From a virus (taxonomy: Duplodnaviria > Heunggongvirae > Uroviricota > Caudoviricetes), in the IMG/VR virus record IMGVR_UViG_2778261505_000002: DNA of 64,000 bases; one strand, 5' to 3'. The position numbers were made by a program, and so were the translations under genes. Numbering within the stretch: position 1 is the stretch's first letter; each line of letters starts with the position of its first letter. The notes below the pieces were generated by a model. The model did no database searches and was not told the origin of the DNA. It worked only from the letters and a program-made list of their open reading frames with translations. Shown piece after piece: positions 11,976-13,125 of this stretch.

Positions 11976-11995
11976 TACTGTTTACTTATACAGTG
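11976..11995. promoter_or_regulatory. LexA-box-like site (CTGT-N8-ACAG) upstream of recombinase gene
   Basis: TACTGTTTACTTATACAGTG; AT-rich 8-bp spacer; 27 bp upstream of ATG 12022. Confidence 0.4.
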
Positions 11996-12021
11996 AATCG
12001 GCGTAACTCGGTGATTGTCAT

Positions 12022-13125
12022 ATGAAAAATAGCTTTGACAGAGCACGCGCTGCGGAGAACACCTCAAAAGAGGCGATTGAGTATCTCGAAAGAGCATCTC
12101 AAATGCAGGCCGTTATGATCTCGCAGGTTAGCAATGATATGAGATTCTCGGACGCATTCATGTTATTTACTCGCTTATCTCTGCTGATAACCAGACGTCG
12201 GCCAGAGATCGCTGTTCATTGTATTTTGATACATGTTTTGCCGCACATTGCCGATGTAAAAGTAAGTGACATTAATAGGTTCATGGTGAACCAACTGGTC
12301 AACCCACTAATACTGGATGGCAAAATTGTTATGGGCCGCCGCGTTTTCTCTCTGATGAAGCAGTTCCTTAGCTGGTGCGCCTTCCAGGGGATGATAGACG
12401 TGTCACCGTTAAACGATATGTCACTTAACAAAGTTGCCGGTGGCGCAAAGCCCACACCTCGCGAGCGGAAGCTGACCGACGCAGAGGTATGGGTGTTCTG
12501 GAATATATGGGACTACTTCAATGTGTGCGCTGGTACAAAATGGGCGGCCAGGCTGTGTCTTGTATCCGCAAGACGACCTGACGAAGTACTGCGGGCTAAA
12601 AAAAGTGAGTTCAATCTTAAGCGTGGGGTTTGGAATCAAGGCAAGAGGAACAAATCTGCCCGTGAGCATTCGCTGCCTTTAAGCACATTAATGCGCACAT
12701 GTATTGAAGAGTTGTTCGAATACGGTAAAGGCAGCCAGTGGCTCGTGCCTTCGAATAAAAAAATCGGGAAAGACCTTCCTATGTCTAAAGTGGCAATAGC
12801 CCAGGCATTACGTCGTATTCTGGAACGACCAGAACTGATGGAGCTTGAGCCATTTACACCCCGAGACTTGCGCCGTACTGCGCGTAGTTACTTCCCAGCA
12901 TTAGGCATAAGCCAGGAGGTATCACGTAAAATCATGAACCACAGTCTTGAGGGGATAGATCGAGTCTACGACCGGCACGATTATATGGACGAGATGCGAG
13001 ACGCCTTAGAAAGTTTCTCGACGTACATCGCATCAATCGTAGAGCAACCGGATTTAGACGAAATTGACCACAAATTCAAGGGAGATCGTCTATCAACAGA
13101 GCTTATTCGTGTAAATTTTTCATAG
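12022..13125 (+). CDS. Tyrosine recombinase/integrase
   Basis: 367 aa; C-terminal catalytic region with TPRDLRRTA ... NHSLEGIDRVYDRHDY, as in phage integrases. Confidence 0.85.
   Translation: MKNSFDRARAAENTSKEAIEYLERASQMQAVMISQVSNDMRFSDAFMLFTRLSLLITRRRPEIAVHCILIHVLPHIADVKVSDINRFMVNQLVNPLILDGKIVMGRRVFSLMKQFLSWCAFQGMIDVSPLNDMSLNKVAGGAKPTPRERKLTDAEVWVFWNIWDYFNVCAGTKWAARLCLVSARRPDEVLRAKKSEFNLKRGVWNQGKRNKSAREHSLPLSTLMRTCIEELFEYGKGSQWLVPSNKKIGKDLPMSKVAIAQALRRILERPELMELEPFTPRDLRRTARSYFPALGISQEVSRKIMNHSLEGIDRVYDRHDYMDEMRDALESFSTYIASIVEQPDLDEIDHKFKGDRLSTELIRVNFS

Follow-up and report, generated by a model that had tools for sequence, protein, structure and literature searches.

Temperate phages maintained in the form of plasmids are called phage-plasmids. 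In the P1 plasmid prophage, Cre is the sole tyrosine recombinase; it has no arm domain, its 13-8-13 site, loxP, lies upstream of the gene, and its expected roles are multimer resolution and cyclisation. We know of no LexA box for cre. LexA control of integron integrase promoters was reportedly described by Guerin et al. in 2009, and also by Cambray et al. in 2011 (PMC3108266). Host LexA also enters the lysogeny of several phages, either through LexA-controlled antirepressors, as in 186 (Tum), N15 (AntC) and the Gifsy phages, or through direct LexA repression, as in GIL01 (PMC11652158; PMC3121763; PMC4551915). N15 and GIL01 are LexA-sensing phage-plasmids, and the genes controlled by LexA in them are antirepressor or lytic genes (PMC11652158). 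Here we analyse a stretch of 64,000 nucleotides of a tailed phage of the Caudoviricetes (IMG/VR record IMGVR_UViG_2778261505_000002; the whole stretch is called the window in what follows), in which a tyrosine recombinase gene, int, is preceded by a LexA box. We propose, with a probability of roughly 0.6, that int belongs to a LexA-repressed system of Cre/loxP-like resolution or cyclisation, and not to one of integration or excision.

By its gene content the window is part of a phage-plasmid of the SSU5 supergroup, of the pSLy3 type and near phage Cyrano. The int region shows 97-99.7% identity to its counterparts in Escherichia phage Cyrano, phage CMS-2020a and PhiR41_1, as well as in E. coli plasmids, about 200 in number, that are non-mobilisable and measure 100-125 kb. 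The reverse complement of the closest plasmid, NZ_CP023851.1 (110,452 bp), holds the whole window, which spans the plasmid's origin; the phage-plasmid has a size of about 110 kb. According to Pfeifer et al., SSU5-type elements are exclusively extrachromosomal (PMC9600943).

The LexA box upstream of int

A preliminary description of this DNA had placed a CTGT-N8-ACAG site 27 bp upstream of the recombinase ATG and a second, stronger LexA box before a UmuD'-like gene at 61221. Both sites are present, the first with a difference in counting and the second one base further on. The int box, TACTGTTTACTTATACAGTG, occupies positions 11976-11995, with its CTGT-N8-ACAG core at 11978-11993; it ends 26 nt before the int ATG (12022) and spans the predicted transcription start region of the gene. 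The second box, CACTGTATGTGTATACAGTA (61222-61241), is near-consensus and ends 16 nt before the ATG of the UmuD'-like gene, humD. A count of the bare pattern is without significance, with two matches in the window against 0.91 expected and 23 of 100 shuffles reaching two, and it was replaced by a weight matrix and shuffles. The matrix, symmetrised and 20 bp long, was built from 25 E. coli LexA operators reported in the literature (Lewis 1994, Fernandez de Henestrosa 2000) and is approximate. It gives 21.6 to the int box and 22.9 to the humD box, so that the latter is indeed the stronger, if marginally; the training operators span 11.7-25.4. After these two, the best score in the window is 10.2, and a score of 21.6 is not attained in any of 30 shuffled windows. 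Whole-element scans likewise returned two strong boxes only, both in NZ_CP023851.1 (24.5 and 21.7, next best 12.0) and in Cyrano (OV696614.1; 25.2 and 22.1, next best 14.9). Measured against this approximate matrix, the int site is a 20-bp palindrome near TACTGT-N8-ACAGTA with an operator-like score.

The position of the box, given the predicted promoter, would agree with a role as operator. The upstream neighbour of int is a glutaredoxin gene, grx (11566-11811), and because an intrinsic terminator follows it (11816..11835, + strand; an 8-bp stem with 5 G-C pairs, then a T-run), int would form its own transcription unit and need its own promoter. From a reading of the sequence we predict its -35 as TTGATC (11948-11953, + strand), conserved in most of 26 distinct promoter versions, and its -10 as TAATAT (11971-11976, + strand), 17 nt past the -35 and with a top-base frequency of 0.95 across distinct promoters. 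The last T of this -10 doubles as the first base of the LexA box, and the box would therefore cover the expected start site. A Shine-Dalgarno-like GGTGA, a partly conserved motif, stands at 12010..12014 (+ strand), 7 nt before the int ATG. The -35 also includes a Dam methylation site, GATC, which is kept in most lineages; cre of P1 is reportedly regulated by Dam methylation.

Conservation of the box was followed in loci with recombinase relatives gathered from IMG/VR, GTDB genomes, plasmid and phage records and encoding contigs. Among the 79 box-bearing loci the promoter occurs in 39 distinct versions and the 20-mer in 20. All of them keep CTG and CAG unchanged, and the spacer and flanks drift; the mean top-base frequency is 0.99 for CTGT/ACAG and 0.78 for the N8 spacer, and it is 0.95 in the -10 and 0.61 over the 12 nt downstream. 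The registration of -35, -10 and box is fixed among distinct promoter versions. This combination of conserved half-sites with variable spacer and flanks, as in an SOS box, holds over the 20 box versions and down to 58-59% identity of Int. The same arrangement of promoter and box recurs, despite unalignable surroundings, in S. Typhi pHCM2 (score 27.1), Klebsiella pJN2-26 (26.1) and Y. pestis pMT1, and likewise in pCAV-type Klebsiella plasmids, with an Int just 58% identical (27.4 and 23.9), and in a Serratia element at 59% (27.3). The E. coli version scores lowest among the conserved boxes, which fits a leaky operator. A LexA-like 20-mer (score 18) was also seen at 3976-3995 of a Nissabacter relative (L092), inside the 3' end of int; lying in coding sequence with no promoter nearby, it was set aside as probably due to chance.

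The second box precedes a gene for a HumD-family (UmuD'-like, S24) protein of 129 aa (61258-61647, + strand), which is monocistronic and is followed by a terminator-like hairpin. The protein scores 219.8 bits with the NCBIfam HumD equivalog, whose cut-off is 120, and PF00717 also matches. It shares its family with P1 HumD, from which we noted no difference; as to humD, the element holds an unremarkable member of a family already described.

The two genes were then compared in the RNA sequencing (RNA-seq) values of the S1 table of PMC9928086, which covers Cyrano in five conditions. The Cyrano Int is 99.7% identical to that of the window. In LB, int stands at 5x the local background. In macrophages at 6 h, relative to medium at 6 h, it rises by 4.2 log2 units (rank 8 of 123 genes, median +0.9) and humD by 3.1 (rank 15), and over the five conditions the two genes correlate with r=0.955. 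The macrophage has been described as a niche that provokes the SOS response in LF82 (PMC9928086). The joint rise of int and humD agrees with joint LexA control and falls short of proof. Taking the sequence, promoter position and conservation of the box together, we infer that LexA binds there over the predicted transcription start and that the int box is very probably a working LexA operator. SOS control of the recombinase, the central proposal of the preliminary description, is likely on the same grounds, and the Cyrano RNA-seq agrees with it.

The recombinase and its candidate site

The product of the int gene (12022-13125, + strand), 367 aa in length, is a tyrosine recombinase made up of a core-binding and a catalytic domain; an arm-binding domain is lacking. 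Int matches PF00589 with 39.4 bits, above the cut-off of 27.1, and together with its core-binding and catalytic fold this places it among the tyrosine recombinases; PF22022 matches weakly, and the P4-type integrase profile aligns from position 137 only. The arm-binding domain PF13356 is absent in family members of at least 44% identity and present in relatives at 34% or less. In the AlphaFold model (mean predicted local distance difference test, pLDDT, 85.9; predicted template modelling score, pTM, 0.75) the N-terminus is all helical. A fold search with this model matched the cores of lambda Int (75-356) and Tn1549 Int (82-397), and also Xer, IntI and XerH, the match to IntI being a generic fold match with an E of about 1e-4. 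Searches of the PDB by sequence, with the single protein and with a profile, returned nothing significant (XerH, E=0.024). Residues R185, K211, R281, R284, H307 and Y316, assigned by motif spacing, are invariant in the family. Residues 281-284 (window 12862-12873) read RDLR in place of HxxR; D282 and R284 do not vary anywhere in the family, even at 24% identity, and R281 is constant in all close members.

Int is the sole site-specific recombinase annotated on the plasmid, and the recombinase is present on 933 plasmid records. In 5,426 complete E. coli genomes the module formed by int and its candidate site was found 254 times, in 251 of the genomes, and always on a plasmid. Of the excision or resolution of the element named in the preliminary description, excision is not supported: none of the 254 places is chromosomal, as would be expected of integration at attB, and Int is without the arm-binding domain of integrative phage integrases.

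The candidate core site is a perfect 13-7-13 inverted repeat, AATGATTCCATAC-CTACTAT-GTATGGAATCATT (11891-11923), about 100 nt upstream of the int gene and 24 nt upstream of its -35. Every phage-plasmid relative, L071 among them, has the arms unchanged, and the 7-bp spacer is lineage-specific, its type tracking the int lineage. In homologues at 44-50% identity both arms are altered at the same two positions (GACTCCAGAC/GTCTGGAGTC) and the 7-bp spacing is kept; the change from GATTCCATAC to GACTCCAGAC goes with the protein and affects both arms together. Judged from these alignments, the repeat has the geometry of a simple tyrosine-recombinase core site, behaves as a binding site co-evolving with its protein, and is probably the core site of the recombinase. 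Inverted arms around a spacer of 6-8 bp, adjoining the gene and co-evolving with it, are the features of a Cre/loxP-like module. On non-phage megaplasmids of Pantoea, Rahnella and Erwinia the pair of site and gene stands alone amid ordinary plasmid genes. With the -35 no more than 24 nt away from the repeat, bound Int could in addition autoregulate the int promoter.

The left edge of the repeat is a break in homology. To its left, otherwise 99%-identical elements carry unrelated DNA, and homology restarts exactly at 11891 (at this window position in relatives L005, L015, L020 and L034, and at query position 31/32 in several E. coli plasmids). This break would be the historical signature of exchange at the site. 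Window positions 11812-11890 correspond to a hot spot of variable cargo, where relatives carry unrelated inserts of 0.9-1.3 kb, often with a minus-strand gene (the homologous place in L002, L005, L007, L017, L034, L035, L038 and L082-L085). Expression of CYRAN_43, the cargo gene of Cyrano, is the highest on that element, at 723x the background. Left of the repeat, at a distance of 10-20 nt, there is a semi-conserved CAGAWTTYAAA motif. No second or hybrid copy of the repeat was found flanking the variable cargo, even with 2 mismatches allowed, and a simple cassette-insertion model was dropped on this account.

The 15-mer ATGATTCCATACATC, which is one arm of the repeat plus ATC, has three extra exact copies in the window. 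The first (9229..9243, + strand) forms the start codon (MIPYI) of a 50-aa open reading frame, the second (10241..10255, + strand) lies about 190 nt upstream of a tRNA cluster, and the third (17939..17953, - strand) is within the 5' part of the dnaE-like gene. None has a convincing degenerate second arm beside it. All are conserved in Cyrano, and those at 9229 and 10241 also in a lineage of 86% identity; they could be secondary sites or places of regulatory action of Int. The cluster holds four tRNA genes (Asn, Tyr, Thr, Ser; 10447-10997) between the first two single-arm copies and the int region, and Cyrano has three of the four, differently arranged.

The remaining genes are those of the pSLy3-type set: DnaB-like helicase, ligase, the tRNA cluster, Gp49, glutaredoxin, integrase and helix-turn-helix (HTH) regulator, followed by CobT/CobS-like proteins, DnaE, RepB, and tail and head genes. 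At 61685-64000 the window carries apbC (mrp) and metG, 80-90% identical to chromosomal copies and resembling a chromosome junction. The suspicion that the window ends in chromosomal DNA was ruled out, both genes being plasmid-borne copies.

Proposed resolution under SOS control and competing explanations

We consider it probable that the job of the enzyme is resolution or cyclisation at the repeat, and the function that needs the fewest assumptions is multimer resolution, perhaps with cyclisation of DNA brought in by infection. We infer that the repeat is the substrate of Int and resolution its reaction, and propose the following course of events. LexA bound at 11976-11995 would occlude the -10 and the start site of the int promoter, leaving int expression low but non-zero in undamaged cells, and the basal leakage of Int would act at 11891-11923 and keep a plasmid of roughly 5 copies monomeric. 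After DNA damage, activated RecA would lead LexA to cleave itself, and int would be derepressed together with humD, the sole other gene with a LexA box. Cleavage of LexA might raise Int about 10-20-fold, and this derepression would coincide with RecA-driven formation of multimers and with the turn of the phage toward lytic growth.

A number of observations weigh against this proposal. In the int -35/-10 pair 8 of the 12 positions agree with the consensus, too few for a scan with a cut-off of 9/12 to call it; the assignment of the promoter therefore rests on conservation. A profile comparison between Int and Cre (hhalign) gave a probability of 0.1%, and in the fold search Cre came below lambda Int, Tn1549 Int, Xer and IntI with a weaker, fold-generic match (Foldseek E 1.5e-2), so that homology does not place Int in the Cre family. 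The canonical His-II position of Int is taken by an invariant arginine (R281), and catalytic activity is only predicted. In macrophages hicAB and CYRAN_60/61, which are without a LexA box, rise as much as int, and RNA-seq from macrophages does not isolate the SOS response. A surplus of resolvase during lytic replication would be without obvious benefit. Finally, no box is present in the phage-plasmids L071 (56% Int identity) and those of Nissabacter (60%), Xenorhabdus (47%) and Providencia (44%), which have the same gene layout, and it is also absent from the non-phage plasmid homologues in Pantoea, Rahnella, Erwinia and Photorhabdus. Since some lineages of the same layout do without it, the box is dispensable for the basic job of the recombinase. 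Because it is missing from several lineages, LexA control would be a derived and actively maintained trait of one large clade and not a requirement of the recombinase.

The alternatives have to be seen against the immunity region, which lies directly downstream of int. The preliminary description had assumed that the element does without a CI-type switch; this was wrong, as a CI/Cro-like pair is present and its repressor is expressed in the Cyrano lysogen. The putative lysogeny repressor is a CI-like HTH protein with no S24 domain (13120-13506, - strand), convergent with int; its gene overlaps the int stop codon by 6 nt, and this tail-to-tail overlap is conserved in distant relatives. Its promoter, TTTACA-16-TAATAT (13580-13553), is flanked by two 10-bp near-palindromes, TAAGTGCTTA and TAGGCACTTA (13540-13549 and 13601-13610). 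Divergent from it is a gene of 70 aa in the Cro position (13758-13970, + strand; phrog_2627), after which the CobT-like, AAA and DnaE genes of the replication block follow on the + strand. A GC-rich hairpin lies after the Cro-like gene, at about 13983-14017, and Cyrano expression drops about 30-fold past it. In Cyrano the repressor gene is annotated as putative repressor, and its expression in the lysogen is 10x over background (PMC9928086). Ciprofloxacin raises Cyrano virions 39-fold (PMC9928086), and other SSU5-like elements are inducible by mitomycin C (PMC9600943). No other entry point for the SOS signal was found in the whole-element box scans or in a Pfam scan of the other Cyrano regulators, among which CYRAN_114 is FljA-like. 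The element is, then, damage-inducible and yet has two LexA boxes, a repressor without cleavage domain and no recognisable antirepressor.

In the main rival explanation, unlikely in our view and still the strongest of the alternatives, the int promoter itself is the SOS sensor: its transcription would run convergently over the gene of the non-cleavable repressor, acting by interference or antisense, and maybe on into the Cro-like and early genes. In a variant that we hold equally doubtful, the int box would be the only route of the element from damage to induction, with host LexA, in place of a cleaved repressor or an antirepressor protein, flipping the lysis-lysogeny switch of SSU5/pSLy3-type phage-plasmids. 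This reading is attractive because it would explain induction by damage in an element with a non-cleavable repressor and two LexA boxes. It gains from the ciprofloxacin response of Cyrano, from the fact that the repressor expressed in lysogeny is HTH only and that no other CI-like protein appeared among the scanned regulators, and from the overlap of int and repressor gene in all phage-plasmid lineages. Moreover, no convincing + strand terminator or stable RNA structure lies between int and the Cro-like gene at 13758, where we found a weak, non-conserved hairpin only (13346-13362; fold z = 0.34). Expression of the Cro-like gene tracks that of int over the five conditions (r=0.976), and from 1 h to 6 h in macrophages int changes by +1.4 log2 units, the repressor by -0.5 and the Cro-like gene by +2.1. 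Against it, four phage-plasmid lineages keep the layout without a LexA box, the 630-nt untranslated stretch past int would be a likely target of Rho, and the rise of int in macrophages yields no Cyrano virions (PMC9928086). The two readings may also hold together, with an SOS input from the int promoter in addition to resolution.

Less probable still is that SOS-induced Int serves mainly to swap cargo between co-resident phage-plasmids, through cointegrates at the repeat, in an integron-like 'adaptation on demand'. Near-identical relatives do differ in the 0.9-1.3-kb cargo between grx and the repeat (e.g. CYRAN_43), homology restarts at the first base of the repeat, the spacer type follows the int lineage, and LexA-controlled integron integrases are a precedent (PMC3108266). 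Cargo exchange as the main function is countered by the lack of a second or hybrid site around the cargo (2 mismatches allowed) and of attC-like elements, and by the ragged left boundary of the cargo (11748-11817). The same pattern is equally expected from occasional intermolecular recombination by a resolution system, to which that of loxP in P1 can be likened.

It is very improbable that the box is due to coincidence or is a relic without activity, and that LexA does not regulate int. The bare pattern does occur at chance frequency and the promoter DNA of this region is A+T-rich, but the full-matrix score is far above background, the registration with the -10 is fixed, the half-sites stay constant over 20 versions and as far as 58% protein identity although spacer and flanks vary, and int is co-induced with the humD gene. 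A classical phage integrase with SOS-promoted chromosomal integration or excision can practically be dismissed: although all records carry the annotation 'integrase' and the best profile and fold matches are P4-type and lambda-type cores, none of the 254 places is chromosomal, Int has no arm-binding domain, lone homologues sit on megaplasmids, no excisionase is annotated nearby, and in place of an attP with arm sites there is a symmetric palindrome.

Comparison with known systems

Neither LexA control of the SSU5-type recombinase nor its function was found described in our literature searches, and the LexA control, as read from the sequence, is probably a further case, not reported before, of a familiar kind of regulation. 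Phage-plasmids of the SSU5/pHCM2/pMT1/pKpn type are often met in E. coli, Klebsiella, Salmonella Typhi, Enterobacter and Yersinia pestis, and some carry resistance genes. If the recombinase is indeed under SOS control, quinolones and other antibiotics that damage DNA would increase site-specific recombination on SSU5-type elements, which could affect the stability and copy state of the element and possibly the exchange of site-adjacent cargo; the same logic gave LexA control of integron integrases its importance. The int promoter is also one of two direct entry points for the SOS signal on the element.

With the phages that use LexA-controlled antirepressors, and with GIL01, the element shares a non-cleavable repressor and, by the proposal made here, host LexA as damage sensor, and N15 and GIL01 are phage-plasmids too. 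It differs from those phages in that LexA would here control the genes of a recombinase and of a UmuD' homologue and no recognisable antirepressor, and any link to induction is hypothetical. Xer/dif, Xer/cer and plasmid resolution systems resemble it in their two-domain recombinase, inverted arms and crossover region of 6-8 bp, and the homologues of Int also occur as lone modules of site and gene on large plasmids; Int differs from the Xer-type systems in that the element itself encodes its one recombinase, the site is perfectly symmetric and the system is not known to depend on accessory sequences or FtsK, and SOS control is not an Xer feature.

The integron integrases (PMC3108266) are alike in several respects: a mobile element carries a gene for a tyrosine recombinase with a LexA box of the E. 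coli type at its promoter, a predicted one in the case of int, the site adjoins the gene with variable cargo on its far side, and the box is conserved across much of the phylogeny with lineage-specific losses. Int belongs to another recombinase family, acts by our proposal on a double-stranded 13-7-13 palindrome and not on attI/attC hairpins, and is carried by a phage-plasmid. Without a second site around the cargo, without attC cassettes and with IntI as a distant fold match, the element is not an integron.

With the Cre-loxP system of P1, finally, Int shares its position as sole recombinase, the lack of an arm domain, a short palindrome upstream (here 13-7-13) and a GATC in the promoter. It differs in having no detectable sequence relationship with Cre and in the convergent arrangement of int with the repressor gene. 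By analogy, Cre-loxP of P1 would be the closest functional analogue of the system described here, and LexA control of the integron integrases the closest precedent for its regulation.

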